DNA of 64,000 nucleotides from Armatimonadota bacterium (GTDB lineage Bacteria; Sysuimicrobiota; Sysuimicrobiia; Sysuimicrobiales; Humicultoraceae). Within the stretch, counting starts at the first letter, position 1, and each line of letters begins with the position of its first letter. The stretch lies in NCBI GenBank assembly GCA_037443365.1, contig JBBIOM010000006.1:22709-86708 (forward strand), given 5' to 3'. Made by a program: the position numbers and the translations under genes. Below are positions 2 through 6,225 of this stretch, piece by piece. The notes below the pieces were generated by a model that saw only the letters and a program-made list of their open reading frames with translations, was not told the origin of the DNA and made no database searches.

Positions 2-811
2 CGGATCATCGGCCCCGCGATAGCCGGGTTCATCATCGGCGAGCTGGGCCCGCGCAGCGGTCCTGGGTTCTGCTTCGCCATCAACACGATCACCTACATG
101 GCCGTGCTGGGCGCGCTTGCCACGATCCGCGTGAACTCCCGGCCGCCCTCTGGTCGGCGGCAGCGCGTGCTGCGCGAGGTCCGGGAGGGCGTGGCCTTCG
201 CCTGGCAGCAGCGGGCGGTGCGCCGGTTCCTGGGGCTTCTGGCTGTCACGGGCGTGTTCGGGCTGTCGTTCACGGTCCTGATGCCGGTCTTCGCGCGCGA
301 CGTGCTGCGCGTGCCCGCCCAAGGGTTCGGGATGCTGATGACCGCAAGCGGGCTGGGCGCCACGATCGGGGTGCTCGCGCTGGCCTCGTCAAGGCCCCAG
401 AGCCCGGGGAACGTCATCATGGGCACGCAGGCCGCGTTCGTCGTACTCCTGGCCGCGTTCGCGTCAAGCTCGACCTACGCCCTGTCGCTGGCGCTCATGG
501 TTGCGTTGAGCGGCGCGATGACCTCCTACCTGTCCTCCACCAACACGACGATCCAGGCAATCGTGCCGGATGCGCTGCGCGGCCGCGTGATGAGCATCTA
601 CATACTGGCGTTCTTCGGCACCGCGCCGCTGGGAGGCCTGCTCATGGGATCCCTGGCCTCGGCCGCGGGCGCGCGGGCCGCGGTGCTCATCGGCGCGTCG
701 GTGTGCGCCGCAGCAGGCCTGGCGGCCTGGCTGGCCGGCCGGAGGGACTCACCTGCCTGGGCGCAGGTGAGCGGTCCGCGCGGCGCGGATAGTCCCACGC
801 TTCCTGTTTGA
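2..811 (+). CDS. MFS transporter, 5'-truncated by the window edge
   Basis: Frame open from position 2 (RIIGPAIAGFIIG...); multiple TM segments; MFS motif 'IQAIVPDALRGRVMSIY'. Confidence 0.85.
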   Translation, partial: RIIGPAIAGFIIGELGPRSGPGFCFAINTITYMAVLGALATIRVNSRPPSGRRQRVLREVREGVAFAWQQRAVRRFLGLLAVTGVFGLSFTVLMPVFARDVLRVPAQGFGMLMTASGLGATIGVLALASSRPQSPGNVIMGTQAAFVVLLAAFASSSTYALSLALMVALSGAMTSYLSSTNTTIQAIVPDALRGRVMSIYILAFFGTAPLGGLLMGSLASAAGARAAVLIGASVCAAAGLAAWLAGRRDSPAWAQVSGPRGADSPTLPV

Positions 812-2524
812 GCCGGCTCCGTACCGGGCCAGGTCGATCCGGCCCGAGCGTGCGAACCGCACGCCCTCACGGCGCAGCCGCCGCCTCTGCGCCGCGGCGA
901 ACTGGCGGTTGGCGAGGGTCCCGTCGCCGCGCACAACGCGCCACCACGGCGCGGCTTCGCCGTCGGGCAGCGATGCCAGCGCCCAGCCAACGGTGCGCCC
1001 ACCGTTTCGCAGCCCGACCATCCGGGCGATCTCGCCGTATGTGGTGACGCTCCCCGGCGGTATGCGCCGCACCGCGGCGTAGATGCGCTCGAACAGGCCG
1101 CGTGTTCCTGATCCGGGGGGGCCAGGCAGGCCGGGTCTGGTCATGGCATCATGGTCCAGGATCTCATTCAACTGCTCGACGCCGAGCCGCCCCGACGCCA
1201 GCGCAACCTCGCGCACTGTGCGGCCGGTCCGGGCGGCTTCGCCGGCGATCCTGGCCGCGGCGTCGTATCCGATGATTGGCGCGAGAGCCGCAGCCAGCAT
1301 CGGGCCCTGCTCGACCAGCTCGGGTCCGCGACCGGTTGCCCGAAGCCCGCCCACGCACCGGCGGGCGAAGTTGCGCGATGCCGCGCCCAGCAGGGCGATC
1401 GCCCCGAGCAGGTTGTGAGCCATCACGGGCATCATCGTGTTGAGCTCGAAGTTGCCCCACTGGTTGCCCTGGGCCACCACGGCGTCACCCCCGATGGCCT
1501 GGGCGCAGGCCTGGATGACCGACTCGGCGATGACCGGGTTTGTCTTGCCCGGCATGATCGAGGACCCGGGCTGTACCGCCGGAAGCACCAGCTCGCCAAG
1601 ACCAGCGTGTGGCCCAGATCCCATCCAGCGAATGTCGTTGGCGATCTTGGCCAGCGCGGTGGCGTATGTCCGGACGGCTCCCGAGCAGAAGACCACCGCG
1701 TCCAGGCAGGCCTGCGCCTGGAAGTGCGCCGCGGTTTCACGCAGCGGGATGCCGGTTATCTCACCCAGGCGCGCGCACACCCGGGCCGCGAACTCGGGAT
1801 GCGCGTTCATGCCCGATCCCACGGCGGTACCGCCCAGCGCCACCTCGCACAGCTCGGCCTCGGCGTAGCCGATCCTGCGCCCGGCGGACGCGACCTGGTC
1901 GGCGTATCCGGCGAACTCCTGCCCCAACCGCACCGGCGTGGCGTCCATCAGGTGCGTGCGTCCTGTCTTTGTGATCGCGTGGAACTGGCGCGCCTTCTTG
2001 CGCAGCGCCGCCTCCAGCTCGTCGAGCGCCGGACGCAGGTCCTCGCGCAGCAACAGGAGCGCCGCCAGGTGCAGCGCGGTGGGGATGACGTCGTTGCTCG
2101 ACTGGCAGAGGTTCACGTGATCGTTGGGATGCACGGCCCCGCCGCCGCGCGCGGCGCCCATCAGCTCGGCGGCGCGGGCGGCTATGACCTCGTTGGCGTT
2201 CATGTTCGTGGACGTGCCCGATCCGGTCTGGAAGACGTCGAGCGGGAACTCGGCGTCGAGCGCGCCGTCGGCGACCTCCTTGGCCGCGCGGATGATGGGC
2301 CTCGCGAGCCTGCGGTCGAGCAGACCCAGGTCGGCGTTGACCTCGGCCGCGGCGCGCTTGATCAGGCCCAACGCGCGCACGAACACGCGCGGGAAGCGCA
2401 GGCCGCTGATCGGGAAGTTCACAATGGCTCGGGCGGTAGCCGCGCCGTAGTAGGCCCGGGCCGGGACCTCCACGCTCCCCATGGAATCGCGCTCGAGGCG
2501 CGTCCTTCTCTTGCTGCCCGGCAT
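749..2524 (-). CDS. fumC: Class II fumarate hydratase fused to a C-terminal alkyltransferase-like (ATL/MGMT-family) domain
   Basis: FumC motifs QTGSGTSTNMNANE, HPNDHVN, GRTHLMDA, GSSIMPGKTN; after a Pro/Gly linker, 'IPPGSVTTYGEIA...RTVGWAL...PWWRVV'; RBS AAGGAGG. Confidence 0.9.
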   Translation of the reverse strand: MPGSKRRTRLERDSMGSVEVPARAYYGAATARAIVNFPISGLRFPRVFVRALGLIKRAAAEVNADLGLLDRRLARPIIRAAKEVADGALDAEFPLDVFQTGSGTSTNMNANEVIAARAAELMGAARGGGAVHPNDHVNLCQSSNDVIPTALHLAALLLLREDLRPALDELEAALRKKARQFHAITKTGRTHLMDATPVRLGQEFAGYADQVASAGRRIGYAEAELCEVALGGTAVGSGMNAHPEFAARVCARLGEITGIPLRETAAHFQAQACLDAVVFCSGAVRTYATALAKIANDIRWMGSGPHAGLGELVLPAVQPGSSIMPGKTNPVIAESVIQACAQAIGGDAVVAQGNQWGNFELNTMMPVMAHNLLGAIALLGAASRNFARRCVGGLRATGRGPELVEQGPMLAAALAPIIGYDAAARIAGEAARTGRTVREVALASGRLGVEQLNEILDHDAMTRPGLPGPPGSGTRGLFERIYAAVRRIPPGSVTTYGEIARMVGLRNGGRTVGWALASLPDGEAAPWWRVVRGDGTLANRQFAAAQRRRLRREGVRFARSGRIDLARYGAGSNRKRGTIRAARTAHLRPGR

Positions 2525-2536
2525 GCGCGAACCTCC

Positions 2537-2806
2537 TTACTGCCGGTAGATCTCCGCCCGATGCCGGACGCGATGGAGGACGACGTCCGACCCCGCGATG
2601 TCGTACCTGACCCGGTAGGGCCACATCTCAAGCCGCCACTGACCTACCCCCTTGCCCTTGAGCTTCTTGATCCTGGGCGGAGGACCGCATGGGATGGTCT
2701 CAAGAGGCCGGACCGCTTCGATGACGCGCGCCCGTACGGCCGGGGGAAGCGCTTCGAGGTCACGCAGAAAGCTCGGGGTGAGCCGGACGACGAAGCGGGA
2801 CGGCAT
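2537..2806 (-). CDS. Type II TA toxin, RelE/ParE family
   Basis: 89 aa, basic, 'IKKLKG...WRL..WPYRVRYDI...VVLHRVRHRAEIYR'; lies 3 nt after the antitoxin. Confidence 0.85.
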   Translation of the reverse strand: MPSRFVVRLTPSFLRDLEALPPAVRARVIEAVRPLETIPCGPPPRIKKLKGKGVGQWRLEMWPYRVRYDIAGSDVVLHRVRHRAEIYRQ

Positions 2807-2809
2807 CGT

Positions 2810-3097
2810 TCAGCGACTCCGCCGTCGGGACAGCGTGCGCCGCACGTATTCCCTCAGGCTGATGGCCTCGCCGGCCTTGTGCTCGGCTGCCGCCACTCGC
2901 AGGGTCTCCTGGAACTCGGGGTCGAGCTCCTCCAGCATGTCGTCGAAGTCCGTCGTCCCGATGAGCACGGCCGTCGGGCGGCCCCTGCGGGTGATGACGT
3001 AGCGCGCCTTCCGCTCAGCCACCCGCTTGAGGAGCGCTCCGAGCTGGGTCCGGGCGAGGTAGGCCGGGATCGTGGCTGTTGGGTTTCTCTTCTGCAT
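2810..3097 (-). CDS. Type II TA antitoxin, Phd/YefM family
   Basis: 'ARTQLGALLKRV...YVITRRGRPTAVLI' Phd N-terminal motif; acidic C-terminal half. Confidence 0.85.
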   Translation of the reverse strand: MQKRNPTATIPAYLARTQLGALLKRVAERKARYVITRRGRPTAVLIGTTDFDDMLEELDPEFQETLRVAAAEHKAGEAISLREYVRRTLSRRRSR

Positions 3098-3254: not shown

Positions 3255-4364
3255 ATGAAACTCCACGAGTACCAGGCCAGAGAGATCTTCGCCCGATACG
3301 AGATCCCGGTGCGCCCAGGCGTTGTCATCGAGCGGCCCGAGCAGCTCGACGGGCTCGGGATCCCCTACCCGATCGTTCTCAAGGCGCAGGTCCTAGTCGG
3401 CGGCCGGGGGAAGGCGGGCGGGATCAAGATGGCCGCGACTCTCCCCGAGGCGCGCGAGAAGGCGGCCGCGATCCTGGGGATGACGATCAAGGGCGAGACC
3501 GTTCGCCGCCTGCTCGTCGTGGAGGCCGCGGAGATCACCGCCGAGTACTACCTGGCGTTCACCGTGGACCGCGCGGCTCGGCGGTTGGTGGCGATCGCCT
3601 CGGCGGCCGGGGGCATTGACATCGAGGAAGTCGCCCGGGCCTCCCCAGAGAAGATCGTCAAGCACCACGTTGATCCTTTCGGGGGGTTCTATCCCTACAA
3701 CGCGCGCGAGATGGGCCGGAAGCTGGGCCTGGAGGGCCGGTGCTTGCTGGAGTTCGCCGCGATCGCGCACGCGCTCTGGCGCCTGTGCCGTGAGATGGAC
3801 GCCGAGCTGGCCGAGATCAACCCGCTGGGGGTGGTGGGCGGCTCGCTGCTGGCCGTAGACGCCAAGCTGGTCATTGACGACAACGCCGCATTCCGCCACC
3901 CGGGGCTGCCGCGCAGCGAGGAGTTGACCGATCTGGAGGCGCTGGCGAAGAGCCAGGACCTGGCCTACGTCGAGCTCGACGGCGACGTGGCGATCATCGG
4001 CAACGGGGCCGGCCTCGTGATGTCCACGCTCGATGCGATCGCGCACTTCGGCGGCCGCCCGGCCAACTTCCTGGACGTGGGCGGCGGGGCGACCAGCGAG
4101 AACATGGCACAGGCGATGCAGATCGTGCTGCGCAAGAGCGGCGTGCGCGCGCTGTTCGTCAACATCTTCGGCGGGATCACCCGCTGCGACGACATCGCCC
4201 GCGCGATCGCCGCGGCGCCGCCTCCGGTGCCGATGGTGGTGCGACTGACCGGAACCAACGAGGAAGAAGGCCGGACGATCCTGCGGGCCGCAGGGATCCA
4301 GGCGCTCACCGATCCGGAGTCCGCCGCCCGGGAAGCCGTGCGCCTGGCCGCCGGGGCGCGGTGA
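3255..4364 (+). CDS. sucC: Succinyl-CoA ligase (ADP-forming) beta subunit
   Basis: MKLHEYQA, KAQVLVGGRGKAGG, EINPL, GNGAGLVMST, PANFLDVGGG, NIFGGITRCD. Confidence 0.95.
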   Translation: MKLHEYQAREIFARYEIPVRPGVVIERPEQLDGLGIPYPIVLKAQVLVGGRGKAGGIKMAATLPEAREKAAAILGMTIKGETVRRLLVVEAAEITAEYYLAFTVDRAARRLVAIASAAGGIDIEEVARASPEKIVKHHVDPFGGFYPYNAREMGRKLGLEGRCLLEFAAIAHALWRLCREMDAELAEINPLGVVGGSLLAVDAKLVIDDNAAFRHPGLPRSEELTDLEALAKSQDLAYVELDGDVAIIGNGAGLVMSTLDAIAHFGGRPANFLDVGGGATSENMAQAMQIVLRKSGVRALFVNIFGGITRCDDIARAIAAAPPPVPMVVRLTGTNEEEGRTILRAAGIQALTDPESAAREAVRLAAGAR

Positions 4365-4368
4365 CCGG

Positions 4369-5334
4369 GTGAGCCGCCGCGTGTTCTCGCCTTTGGGTCT
4401 TGGTGCTCCCGGACGCGCGCTGGCACGGCGCGCGCTTGCCTGCGCCGCGCTGCTGGTCGGGCTCGCCCTGGCGGCGCAGGCCGCCCTGCTCTTGTTCGGG
4501 CAGCCCCTCGCCGCGCAGATCGCACCGTCGGGCCCGCCTGCGCGTCACGTCATCCTGCTCAGCCTCGACGGCGCACGCGCCGACGCCGTCAGGGCCGCAG
4601 TACCCCTGGCCCTGGCAGGTCGCGGGGCCGTGACCTGGACCGCGCAGACCACCCTTCCGAGCTCGACCCTGCCCGCGCACGCCTCGATGCTCTCGGGAGT
4701 GGGCCCGGCAGTTCACAGGGTGACCTTCAACGACTGGCGGGCCGGTGAGCCCTACTTCGCGCGCGCCACCATCTTCACGGAGGTCACACGCGCAGGAGGC
4801 CGAGCCGCGGCCCTTGTCACGAAGCCCAAGATGATGTTCTTCGTGCCGCCGGGAGTGGTCGCCAGCGCCCAGCACCTGCTCTACCCACGTCTGCGCCAGG
4901 CCGACGTGGTGGAGAGCGCCTCACGCCTCTTCCTCGAGCAGCGGCCTGCCCTGCTCTTCGTGCACGTCACGGACCCAGACGATACCGGTCACCGGCATGG
5001 CTGGATGAGCGAGGAGTACCTGCGTGTGATCGCCGCGACTCCAGATCTGATCGAGCGCCTGCTGCGTGCCCTCGACGATGCCGGGGTGGCGGCCAGGGCC
5101 CTGCTGATCGTCACCGCGGACCACGGCGGATCGGGCATCGCGCACGGCACGAACCGACCCGAGGACATGACGATCCCCTGGATGGCGTTCGGCGGCGCGG
5201 CCCGGCGCGGGGTGGTGGTCGAGCGGCGCGTCGTGGTGTTCGACACGGCCGCGACCGTGCTGGAGGCGTTGGGCGTTCCGATACCGGGTGACTGGCAGGG
5301 CGCGCCGGTGCACGAAGCGCTGCAGAGGCCGTAG
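4369..5334 (+). CDS. Exported/membrane-anchored alkaline phosphatase superfamily protein (nucleotide pyrophosphatase/phosphodiesterase-like)
   Basis: N-terminal hydrophobic segment; SLDGAR, PSSTLPAHASMLSG (Thr nucleophile), DDTGHRHG, TADHGG. Confidence 0.85.
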   Translation: MSRRVFSPLGLGAPGRALARRALACAALLVGLALAAQAALLLFGQPLAAQIAPSGPPARHVILLSLDGARADAVRAAVPLALAGRGAVTWTAQTTLPSSTLPAHASMLSGVGPAVHRVTFNDWRAGEPYFARATIFTEVTRAGGRAAALVTKPKMMFFVPPGVVASAQHLLYPRLRQADVVESASRLFLEQRPALLFVHVTDPDDTGHRHGWMSEEYLRVIAATPDLIERLLRALDDAGVAARALLIVTADHGGSGIAHGTNRPEDMTIPWMAFGGAARRGVVVERRVVVFDTAATVLEALGVPIPGDWQGAPVHEALQRP

Positions 5335-5358: not shown

Positions 5359-6225
5359 ATGGCCATTCTCATCAACGAGCACACCCGCGTCCTGGTTCAG
5401 GGCATCACCGGCTTTCAGGGCGAGTTCCACACGCGCCGGATGTTGGAGTTCGGCACCCAGGTGGTGGCCGGCTCGACCCCGGGAAAGGGCGGCCAGGTCG
5501 TGGCCGGCGTTCCGGTGTTCGACACGGTTGCCGAGGCCGTGGCCAAGACCGGCGCTGGCGCCTCGTGCATCTTCGTGCCCGCGCGCGCGGCCCTGGACGC
5601 GGCGATGGAGGCGATCGCATCCCGGCTGGATCCGGTAGTGATCATCACCGAGCACGTCCCCATCCACGACTCGATCGAGATGGTGGACGCGGCGCGCGCC
5701 GCCGGCGTGCGCATCGTCGGGCCGAACGGCCCGGGCGTGGTCTCTCCCGGGCGGTGCAAGATCGGCATCATGCCCAACCATCTGTTCGCGCCCGGGGGCG
5801 TGGGGCTGGTCTCGCGCAGCGGCACGCTCACATACGAGATCGTGGCCGGCCTGACGCGCGCCGGCCTGGGACAGAGCACCGCCCTGGGCCTGGGCGGCGA
5901 TCCGGTCGTGGGCCTGACGTTCCAGGAGGCGGTGGCGCTCTTCTCGGAAGACCCACAGACCCAGGCGATCGTCCTTGTGGGCGAGATCGGCGGGGCCGCC
6001 GAGGAAGAGGCCGCCCGCTTCATCAAGACCTCCGTGCGCAAGCCCGTCGTGGGATACGTCGCCGGCCGGACCGCGCCGCCCGGCAAGCGCATGGGCCACG
6101 CGGGCGCGGTGATCTCCGGGAGCGAGGGGGGAGCGCAGGCCAAGATCGAGGCGCTGCAGGCCGCCGGGGTCGCCATGGTAGAGCTCCCCTTCCAGGTGCC
6201 GGAGGTCCTGCGGGGGCTGCTGTAG
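5359..6225 (+). CDS. sucD: Succinyl-CoA ligase alpha subunit
   Basis: VQGITG, GPNGPG, SRSGTLTYE, GKRMGHAGA (phospho-His). Confidence 0.95.
   Translation: MAILINEHTRVLVQGITGFQGEFHTRRMLEFGTQVVAGSTPGKGGQVVAGVPVFDTVAEAVAKTGAGASCIFVPARAALDAAMEAIASRLDPVVIITEHVPIHDSIEMVDAARAAGVRIVGPNGPGVVSPGRCKIGIMPNHLFAPGGVGLVSRSGTLTYEIVAGLTRAGLGQSTALGLGGDPVVGLTFQEAVALFSEDPQTQAIVLVGEIGGAAEEEAARFIKTSVRKPVVGYVAGRTAPPGKRMGHAGAVISGSEGGAQAKIEALQAAGVAMVELPFQVPEVLRGLL

Follow-up and report, generated by a model that had tools for sequence, protein, structure and literature searches.

A lineage-private fusion of a class II fumarase-family lyase with an alkyltransferase-like domain in an Armatimonadota bacterium

Alkyltransferase-like (ATL) proteins carry the motif PWHRV in place of PCHR, have a conserved Arg finger and Tyr, bind O6-alkylguanine without repairing it, and interact with UvrA/UvrC, and they also occur in archaeal ATL-EndoV fusions, with a related AGTendoV fusion in Ferroplasma, as described in the available text of PMC10779285. 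Fumarases are linked to DNA damage by another route: the class II fumarase of B. subtilis (Fum-bc) co-localises with DNA, its action running through L-malate (PMC5711358), and in E. coli the alkylation-repair enzyme AlkB is inhibited by fumarate (bioRxiv 10.1101/2020.08.04.232652). In these moonlighting fumarases (B. subtilis Fum-bc and E. coli FumA/FumB), metabolites (L-malate, fumarate, and alpha-ketoglutarate) act on RecN or AlkB, and in the available text of both sources the enzymes are without a DNA-binding domain.

Here, a window of 64,000 nucleotides (contig JBBIOM010000006.1) from the metagenome-assembled genome (MAG; 69 contigs, 97.7% complete) of an uncultured subsurface bacterium is described, in which a single open reading frame joins a lyase of the fumarase superfamily to an ATL domain. 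The fused protein resembles the moonlighting fumarases in tying a fumarase in some way to DNA-damage handling but, unlike them, has a predicted DNA-binding domain on the enzyme itself. Stand-alone ATLs such as vpAtl (2kif), S. pombe Atl1 (3gva/3gx4), and E. coli ATL/YbaZ are single domains of ~100 aa of the MGMT C-terminal type and share with the fused domain the Trp for Cys replacement and the conserved Tyr and Arg-finger positions, whereas the fused domain lacks its own start, sits as a module at the C-terminus of a 591-aa enzyme, and reads PWWRV rather than PWHRV. ATL-EndoV, AGTendoV, and ATL-AlkD proteins likewise carry a domain of the ATL or AGT C-terminal type in covalent linkage with an enzyme, but there the enzyme acts in DNA repair and the fusions are recurrent, whereas the partner here belongs to central metabolism and the fusion is a single one-member cluster.

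Layout of the fused reading frame and its two parts

The frame contains no internal stops across its 591 codons, and its Pfam matches fall in the order Lyase_1, FumaraseC_C, and DNA_binding_1, the last being the MGMT C-terminal domain (Table 1). This bears out the original prediction that a fumarase reads without a stop through a Pro/Gly linker into an MGMT-fold domain. The extension beyond the lyase is 128 residues long and comprises the linker, the ATL domain, and the tail; GC3 is nearly equal in the fumarase and ATL parts (0.89 and 0.88), which share one frame, and is only 0.62 in the linker. The ATG (2524-2522) has the AAGGAGG motif 7 nt upstream, overlapping the stop codon of the upstream ParE-like gene. 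The ParE and Phd/YefM pair occupies the place of a divergent mdh in sister species, and a promoter-like site (3166-3138) lies upstream of the antitoxin gene, as a single scan match that is a match to the consensus only. At the other end, the C-terminal tail of the fused frame overlaps the 3' end of a convergent MFS gene (2..811, + strand).

Table 1. Features of the fused reading frame and its upstream neighbours (positions in the window)
Feature	Coordinates	Strand	Basis
Whole fused ORF, 591 aa and TGA stop	749..2524	-	ORF translation
Shine-Dalgarno AAGGAGG	2532..2538	-	Read from sequence
Lyase part, residues 1-463	1136..2524	-	Pfam, motifs, structure matches
Lyase_1, residues 16-345	1490-2479	-	Pfam 1.1e-92
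FumaraseC_C, residues 410-463	1136-1297	-	Pfam 1.3e-17
Pro/Gly linker MTRPGLPGPPGSGTRG, residues 461-476 (16 residues)	1097..1144	-	Sequence and relatives' junctions
C7 homopolymer inside linker (G7 on + strand)	1115..1121	-	Sequence
ATL domain, residues 477-570	815..1096	-	Pfam, alignment, predicted structure
DNA_binding_1 (PF01035), residues 478-555	860-1093	-	Pfam 2.2e-20
PWWRVV, residues 526-531	932..949	-	Sequence and structure-sequence alignment
Basic C-terminal tail, residues 571-591, poorly conserved	752..814	-	Translation, alignment
ParE toxin (2537-2806) and Phd/YefM antitoxin (2810-3097) genes, upstream in the same orientation	2537..3097	-	Gene calls

The C-terminal domain is an ATL, as had been proposed from its Trp for Cys replacement. 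PF01035 scores 72.7 bits (cut-off 27) and the only Pfam matches upstream are Lyase_1 and FumaraseC_C, leaving the ATL part without an AGT N-terminal domain. Trp527 stands at the acceptor-Cys position, where it aligns with Trp56 of S. pombe Atl1 (PWHRV), the Trp of vpAtl (PWFRV), and the Cys of Ada-C (PCHRV); PWWRV is common to close relatives, and in others the residue after PW is H, Q, F, Y, or L. The best-scoring structures are vpAtl (2kif, 2.1e-17) and Atl1 (3gva, 1.5e-14), with Tyr25, Arg39, and Trp56 aligned, such that the Y of TTYGEIA and the R of GGRTVG correspond to 3gva positions 25 and 39, presumably the base-flipping Tyr and the Arg finger of Atl1. Both are invariant columns (Y20 and R34) in an alignment of 35 ATL sequences, and all 12 of the 12 invariant columns are kept, together with the Trp. 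An AlphaFold model of the ATL part (pLDDT 89.4) has 2kif and 3gva as nearest folds (TM 0.77); the model of the whole 591 aa, made without an alignment, has a pLDDT of 40.5 and a pTM of 0.24, values from which the domain arrangement is not inferable. The same genome has a uvrA gene (contig C30, 6552-9302; 1451 bits).

The identity of the lyase half is less tightly defined. It has the full-length Lyase_1 and FumaraseC_C architecture of class II fumarases such as those of M. tuberculosis (6s43) and E. coli (FumC, 1fuo), and includes SSND, GRTHLMDATP, and the GSSIMPGKTN SS-loop, which we take to be the signature motifs (SSND, GRTH..DATP, and GSSxMPxKxN, the superfamily loop being GSxxMxxKxN). It differs from these fumarases in its extension, in its predicted rather than demonstrated activity, and in scoring below the fumC equivalog TIGR00979 (506.6 against a cut-off of 664.75); NF009089 is not reached either (449.7 against 840). 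The top NCBIfam model is instead NF008909, 'aspartate ammonia-lyase' (522.9 bits, cut-off 510), which is one reason to consider that the enzyme half is an aspartate ammonia-lyase or another superfamily member, a question that concerns that half alone. The SS-loop is also followed by NPVIAE, and this position typically reads NPV in aspartases and NPTQ in fumarases; in addition, the genome separately encodes a two-subunit class I fumarase-type enzyme. However, 10 of 14 control genomes also score above the NF008909 cut-off, and the model is probably not specific to aspartases. The aspA equivalog TIGR00839 is not reached (426.1 against 681.2) and scores below the fumC equivalog. Among solved structures the best 32 matches are all deposited as fumarases (445 to 407 bits, the top one at 445 bits over residues 7-462), and aspartases rank after them at 395 (AspB), 382, 361, 339, and 315 (E. 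coli AspA) bits. The SS-loop segment on its own has mycobacterial fumarases as its best match among named enzymes, and the orthologous gene lies between sdhC and sdhA in relatives. An aspartase or other non-fumarase identity is thus unlikely, and the half is filed as a class II fumarase/aspartase-family lyase that is probably a fumarase by sequence and structure matches, rather than a proven FumC equivalog. The original description of a 'full class II fumarase' accordingly holds as the likely identity, given the structure matches, but goes further than the missed TIGR00979 cut-off and the aspartase label of the top NCBIfam model allow.

Origin of the fusion among related genomes

Among 41 genomes sampled from the order, the fusion is present in one (G000). 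Five congeneric species hold the junction, and all have fumC, a stop, a spacer of 4-12 nt, and atl, the two genes sharing a reading frame in four of them: a single in-frame stop separates them in G006, G005, G001, and G002, and a stop plus a frame change does so in G003. Where the fused protein has its linker, the relatives have the last part of fumC, its stop codon, the 4-12 nt spacer, and the start of atl. Junction length varies by 12-18 nt and more among these relatives, and G002 has an 18-nt tandem array (x3.3) there; from these sequences the junction is Gly-codon-rich and indel-prone. In a fumC tree of 19 rows, G000 falls inside a clade with four unfused species (support 100/99). On this comparison the fusion is private to one lineage and derived, and since all five congeners have a fumC stop and a separate atl start it is read as a private loss of stop and start. 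Relatives of that kind had been named beforehand as evidence that would refute the original proposal, by pointing to either an assembly artefact or a private stop loss; this has largely come true, in five of five congeners, through the loss and not the artefact.

Other genera of the family have the arrangement sdhC-fumC-sdhA-sdhB-atl. In G020, G014, and G013, fumC-sdhA-sdhB-atl lie on one stretch, with gene identities confirmed by Pfam and atl directly adjoining the preceding gene, and in these three and G012, G017, and G010, sdhB is upstream of atl and a convergent MFS gene is present; atl is the last gene of the fumC-sdhAB cluster in at least six genera. The ancestral family arrangement was therefore sdhC-fumC-sdhA-sdhB-atl with a convergent MFS gene. 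In the genus of G000, the sdhAB pair between fumC and atl was lost, giving fumC, stop, 4-12 nt spacer, and atl, and in the G000 lineage the fumC stop and atl start were then lost in frame at the indel-prone junction, the former spacer becoming the 16-residue Pro/Gly linker. The adjacency of fumC and atl is thus attributed to the loss of sdhAB and the fusion to the loss of stop and start, steps that the comparison of genomes demonstrates.

Other ATL fusions put this event in context. Large protein-database searches found no other protein combining Lyase_1 with an ATL domain, no record combining fumarase and an ATL fusion was found in the literature searched, and residues 396-591 had no usable match in the ESM Atlas, in keeping with the earlier statement that no fusion of this kind had been described. 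The words 'fusion' and 'fused' are absent from a fumarase-moonlighting overview (PMC13655608). A candidate second fusion (P0094, 126 aa, query positions 4-105) proved to be the C-terminal piece of a fumarase, ending in a tail that is not an ATL domain. The FumC-ATL fusion forms a single cluster with one member sequence, and ATL-AlkD fusions form seven distinct clusters. Across 36 long ATL-domain proteins the partners include AlkD, carbonic anhydrase, PPIase, SelA, and methyltransferases, mostly in single-member clusters; judged from these architectures, ATL genes fuse with many unrelated partners.

Alternative readings: artefact, separate translation, and functional coupling

The fusion is real, and a homopolymer artefact is ruled out. 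The original prediction had singled out the linker and its G7 run as the stretch where sequence support mattered, and there the contigs from two samples agree, with no indel. A run X1 contig (3965 nt, depth 38, possibly from the source sample) covers 700-2213 with no differences, and a run X2 contig (567 nt, depth 7, from a second sample of the same study) spans 888-1454 without gaps and with three substitutions, of which those at 953 and 956 are synonymous and the third, 1120 G>T (C>A on the coding strand), is Pro469Thr, which interrupts the C7 run and keeps the frame. Because this second contig crosses the junction indel-free with a C7-breaking variant, the fusion is not a C7 artefact. Coverage of the stretch by runs X3 and X4 is incomplete and carries no weight either way. 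Frameshifting at C7 as a cause is also rejected, since the alternative frames are stop-free for >90 codons and the canonical atl start is absent. The broader proposal that the open frame results from faulty assembly or consensus calling, or that the ATL part is a remnant in decay or never translated, draws on the fragmented state of the MAG, on the position of the C7 run in the linker, and on the nature of the support, which consists of contigs rather than reads, all from one study, in which minority unfused alleles would be invisible and of which the run X1 contig may be the window's own source. It is nevertheless extremely improbable: the relatives differ at the junction by many substitutions and a 12-18 nt in-frame length change rather than by a single base, and the ATL part keeps all its invariant residues and a low dN/dS. 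Against three unfused relatives, the ATL part (93-94 codons) has a dN/dS of 0.13-0.14, the fumC part 0.19-0.22, and neighbouring sucC 0.17-0.26, figures that are pairwise and cover pre-fusion time too, so that they do not prove constraint after the fusion; by these values both halves are intact and under purifying selection. It is also very unlikely that the ATL part is made separately, or mainly so, from an internal non-canonical start, leaving a free ATL. The ATL domain begins at codon CTG477, which does have an AGGA, read from the sequence, 9 nt before it, and ATG461 is 16 codons upstream of that CTG, but CTG is a rare start codon, and with no stop after the fumarase part each ribosome that finishes it makes the fusion. 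In-frame ATG, GTG, and TTG codons are absent between M461 and V485, where CTG466 and CTG477 alone are present, which agrees with the earlier observation that the ATL domain lacks a start codon of its own.

A further reading treats the fusion and the family-wide placement of atl as a selected link, with fumarate/malate turnover at alkylated DNA or a nucleoid-tethered fumarase. A functional link would predict the conserved terminal position that atl has in the fumC-sdhAB cluster of at least six genera, selection on both halves is purifying, and bacterial fumarases are tied to the DNA-damage response in the available text of PMC5711358 and bioRxiv 10.1101/2020.08.04.232652. The atl neighbourhoods speak against it: in a survey of 80 loci drawn from across bacteria (each species represented by one genome, flanks of at most 4 kb, found with a 7-sequence ATL alignment as query), fumC or sdh lies within the flanks of three, all from the same family as G000, a fourth family locus being cut off by a contig end, and of none of the 76 loci outside the family. 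Because the association is confined to one family, it is explicable by shared ancestry. The fusion itself is in one of 41 related genomes and in no other protein in the database searches, and ATL domains are joined to many unrelated enzymes. Moreover, neither AlkB (PF13532) nor Ldh/Mdh (PF02866) has a match in the G000 genome; AlkB is the sole bacterial target published as connecting fumarate with alkylation repair, so that its absence counts against coupling and against a relief of AlkB inhibition by fumarate removal. Such a selected link is distinctly unlikely, and the original suggestion that the fusion physically links the TCA cycle to DNA repair is unsupported in view of a private fusion, a one-family neighbourhood, varied ATL partners, and a missing AlkB. 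There is a slim chance that atl is a functional member of an sdhC-fumC-sdhAB-atl operon whose partnership with fumarase the fusion has fixed physically, the tetramer being anchored by four ATL domains to alkylated DNA so that local fumarate/malate chemistry or nucleoid localisation of fumarase aids the alkylation response; if true, the protein would hard-wire, in a prokaryote, the moonlighting reported for the fumarases of B. subtilis, E. coli, and eukaryotes.

Implications of a private gene fusion

The locus is probably best explained as a real, lineage-private fusion of two co-transcribed neighbours whose parts work independently, with an effect that we infer to be neutral or nearly so. The encoded protein most likely assembles as a class II fumarase tetramer with four flexibly tethered ATL domains. 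Each part would keep the role of the separate protein: the lyase part would interconvert fumarate and malate, and the ATL part would bind and flip O6-alkylguanine without repair and pass the lesion to UvrA-dependent excision repair. Translational coupling would have been replaced by covalent 1:1 co-expression. A coupled function is unnecessary to explain the fusion, which has the look of a chance local event between two adjoining genes, and a guilt-by-association ('Rosetta stone') interpretation of it runs against the present evidence.

The fusion is a clean, datable example of gene-fusion birth, in which operon compaction is followed by conversion of a spacer into a linker. With it, a metabolic enzyme joins the partners to which ATL domains are fused, and the case favours the idea that small ATL genes ending an operon merge easily with whichever gene stands before them. 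If the tethering is functional, it would provide a natural handle for testing fumarase action at damaged DNA in bacteria.

The fused open reading frame and its junction

The fumarase-ATL protein P0001 (ATL, alkyltransferase-like, with Trp replacing the acceptor Cys) is encoded in one frame with two intact domains, and its linker is built from a former stop codon, a spacer, and the former atl start. The original prediction had described the linker, its homopolymer, and the PWWRVV motif correctly, and its claim that the ATL domain lacks a start codon of its own is borne out by the count of in-frame ATG, GTG, and TTG codons between M461 and V485, which is 0. At third codon positions, the lyase and ATL parts, which share one frame, have a GC of 0.89 and 0.88, respectively, and the linker has 0.62, a value that fits its having been non-coding until recently.

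Features of the fused gene and of neighboring genes in the window
Feature	Window position	Strand	Residues	Remarks
Fused ORF P0001, 591 aa	749-2524	-		One frame, 0 internal stops
Shine-Dalgarno-like AAGGAGG	7 nt before ATG at 2524	-		Read from sequence
Lyase_1		-	16-345	Pfam 1.1e-92
FumaraseC_C		-	410-463	Pfam 1.3e-17
DNA_binding_1 (C-terminal domain, O6-alkylguanine alkyltransferases)		-	478-555	Pfam 2.2e-20
Linker MTRPGLPGPPGSGTRG	1097-1144	-	461-476	
Homopolymer (C7 run, coding strand)	1115-1121			Inside linker
PWWRVV	932-949	-	526-531	
ParE/Phd toxin-antitoxin pair	2537-3097	-		
sucC	3255-4364	+		
Type I phosphodiesterase/nucleotide pyrophosphatase-family gene	4369-5334	+		321 aa; N-terminus hydrophobic, signal-like
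sucD	5359-6225	+		

The reading over the linker, including the homopolymer (G7 on the forward strand), was checked on contigs, not reads, from public runs of one subsurface-metagenome study, in which four runs, none of them RNA, contain parts of the stretch. A contig of run X1 (3965 nt, depth 38), which may be the source sample, covers 700-2213 with 0 differences, and one of run X2 (567 nt, depth 7), from another sample, covers 888-1454, junction included, with 0 gaps and three substitutions. Those at 953 and 956 are synonymous third-position changes just 5' of PWWRVV; the other (1120 G>T) turns codon 469 (CCC) into ACC, interrupting the C7 run with the frame kept, so a homopolymer-length error is ruled out as the source of the open frame. 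A frame shifted at the C7 run meets no stop close by, and the stretch retains no canonical start for atl. The junction is gap-free in both samples, and the fused frame holds.

Distribution and origin of the fusion

The fusion is private to G000, the genome holding the window, among 41 genomes of its order (G000 included), and is derived. All 41 carry the lyase gene, but the two parts share a single open frame in G000 alone; G015 and G024 (unpublished), in each of which the lyase and atl genes sit on different contigs, enter this tally only. The junction is visible in five other species of the genus, with G004 and G007 left out for incomplete assembly or a contig edge. G006, G005, G001, and G002 have fumC, a single stop (TAG or TAA), 6 to 12 nt, and then atl (ATG or GTG) in the same frame, and G003 has the fumC stop, 4 nt, and then atl in a different frame. 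The G000 junction is shorter than those of G001 (by 12 nt) and G006 (by 18 nt); where G001 has TAG it reads ACA, and several bases nearby also differ from G001. The G002 junction (locus L006, 2914-2973) carries a tandem array of an 18-nt unit (3.3 copies, 83% matches) that extends the ATL N-terminus by Gly/Gln/Val repeats. Together, the length changes and this array mark the junction as a Gly-codon-rich, slippage-prone stretch that alters by in-frame indels.

A maximum-likelihood fumC tree of 19 of the 20 fetched loci (L014, of G024, left out) places G000 within a clade (support 100/99) with the unfused G003, G006, G005, and G002, its sister within the clade being not settled. A long branch leads to G001, outside the clade. 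The nesting of G000 among unfused species identifies the fusion as derived. Purifying selection has acted on both halves, as judged from pairwise Nei-Gojobori dN/dS values that include pre-fusion time. For G000 versus G006, G002, and G003, these are 0.13-0.14 for the ATL domain (93-94 codons), 0.19-0.22 for the lyase part (448 codons), and 0.17-0.26 for the neighboring sucC, against 0.09-0.20, 0.12-0.14, and 0.12-0.17, respectively, among unfused species; sucC is also slightly higher in G000, so the mild rise is not peculiar to the fused gene.

Other genera of the family place atl after sdhC, fumC, and one or two sdhA-sdhB pairs and ahead of a convergent MFS gene, an order that G020, G014, and G013 each show on a single stretch (the G012 atl coordinate is from the 41-genome survey), with sdhA, sdhB, and atl confirmed by Pfam. 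In these three the atl start is 0 to 3 nt from the end of the preceding gene, and in G017 and G010 sdhB is 0.5-0.8 kb upstream of atl. Loci L027 (G014) and L028 (G012) have two distinct sdhA-sdhB pairs in tandem between fumC and atl, ∼40% identical to each other. The genus of G000 has no sdhAB pair in this interval, and the sole sdhAB-like genes of G000 lie on another contig (G000:C1:22700-26025), show 38-42% identity to the pair nearest atl in G020, and represent only the more distant type. The adjacency thus arose by deletion, and the fusion by a second, small deletion.

Identity of the two parts

The lyase part belongs, over its full length, to the class II fumarase/aspartase family, and NCBIfam is equivocal on which enzyme it is. 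It could be an aspartase rather than a fumarase, since it scores just over the cutoff of the NCBIfam 'aspartate ammonia-lyase' subfamily model NF008909 (522.9 versus 510) and under that of the fumC equivalog (506.6 versus 664.75), but NF008909 is also over its cutoff in 10 of 14 control genomes and is probably not specific, and the aspA equivalog is lower still (426.1). Further against an aspartase, every one of the 32 top-ranked solved relatives is deposited as a fumarase (445-407 bits, that of Mycobacterium tuberculosis first), with AspB (395 bits) and Escherichia coli AspA (315 bits) ranking lower and the SS-loop segment alone giving the same pattern, and the orthologue in other genera lies between sdhC and sdhA. 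The 'full class II fumarase' of the original prediction thus stands as to length and solved relatives, but with the fumC equivalog cutoff missed, sequence and context make this part probably, rather than certainly, a fumarase.

A two-subunit enzyme of the class I fumarase type is encoded in G000 as well. A malate/lactate dehydrogenase gene is divergent from fumC in G006, G002, and G003, and the same place in G000 holds the toxin-antitoxin pair; the 97.7%-complete G000 assembly has 0 matches to PF02866 (Ldh/Mdh) and none to G006 mdh by tblastn at E<=1e-10. The sucC and sucD genes, which are usually adjacent, are separated in the window by the phosphodiesterase-family gene.

The best solved-structure matches of the ATL part are vpAtl (2kif, 2.1e-17) and Schizosaccharomyces pombe Atl1 (3gva, 1.5e-14), followed by Ada-C (9.5e-07) and Ogt proteins. 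Trp527 aligns with Trp56 of Atl1 and the acceptor Cys of Ada, and the Tyr and Arg aligned to Atl1 positions 25 and 39 are retained, as are 12 of 12 invariant columns and the near-invariant Trp in an alignment of 35 ATL relatives; the position after the Trp is variable (W, H, Q, Y, L), and PWWRV is common to the closest relatives. A structure predicted from this alignment (pLDDT 89.4, pTM 0.81) has its closest fold matches, at TM 0.77, in 2kif and 3gva, with the DNA complex 3gx4 among them.

Architecture and meaning of the fusion

A fumarase partner for ATL is a new architecture, although the kind of event is not new, as archaeal ATL-EndoV and AGTendoV are known ATL/AGT fusion proteins (described in PMC10779285). 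The original prediction knew of no such fusion, and three protein searches and a literature search revealed no other. When 5.8 billion protein clusters were searched by a word-based method (residues 455-591, proteins of 325-1035 aa), 9 of 2182 candidates matched, and a 35-sequence ATL profile gave 36 among 8000 scored candidates of 313-2000 aa; in both, only P0001 has Lyase_1. An exhaustive HMMER scan of 1.84 billion representatives (residues 396-591) detected 6752 proteins at E<=0.001; among the 150 best (96-342 aa), none has both parts and 6 have the fumarase C-terminus only. This is a weaker negative, as the scan is blind to fused proteins behind unfused representatives and P0001 itself is absent from the list. 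P0094, considered as a second fusion, is a fumarase C-terminus fragment with an unrelated tail. No paper combining 'fumarase' with 'alkyltransferase-like' was found among those searched, and a term search of a 2026 survey of fumarase evolution gave 0 occurrences of 'fusion' or 'fused' (PMC13655608).

ATL partners in the other 35 long proteins, most of them with a single member sequence, are AlkD (5 clusters), carbonic anhydrase (4), PPIase/SurA-type domains, SelA, methyltransferases, chloramphenicol acetyltransferase, DUF429, a UvrD-like helicase, Ada, and others. ATL-AlkD (P0160-P0164) and ATL-carbonic anhydrase (PF00484; P0177-P0179, P0181) recur, with one cluster of 37 and one of 14 members, respectively, and look like better candidates than fumarase-ATL for selected ATL fusions.

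The original prediction proposed that the fusion could bring fumarate/malate turnover to DNA lesions and so link the tricarboxylic acid cycle physically to DNA repair, an idea that draws on published fumarase moonlighting (PMC5711358 and bioRxiv 10.1101/2020.08.04.232652). We consider such coupling improbable, as AlkB, the alkylation-repair enzyme that fumarate targets in published work, has no match in G000, and an association of atl with fumarate metabolism is seen nowhere outside this one family. Among 80 atl loci from across bacteria (one genome per species; Gemmatimonadales, Anaerolineales, Acidobacteriota, other Armatimonadota, and others), with flanks of up to 4 kb, some ended by contig ends, fumC, sdhA, or sdhB is near atl in three, all of the family of G000 (G003, G020, and G013); a fourth family locus is severed by a contig end, and none of the 76 loci outside the family has these genes within such flanks.

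G000 has, besides the ATL part, a canonical Ogt-like gene that matches PF01035 more strongly (117.6 bits), and uvrA; the two genes lie ∼2.5 kb apart on the same strand (G000:C30:3827-9302). The ATL is thus an addition to direct repair, not a substitute. The product would be a fumarase tetramer bearing four tethered ATL domains, each acting as the separate proteins do; those of E. coli and S. pombe are described as binding and flipping O6-alkylguanine and passing it to UvrA-dependent excision repair (PMC10779285), and the tethered domains may do likewise. The two parts are likely independent modules, with covalent fusion simply taking over from translational coupling.
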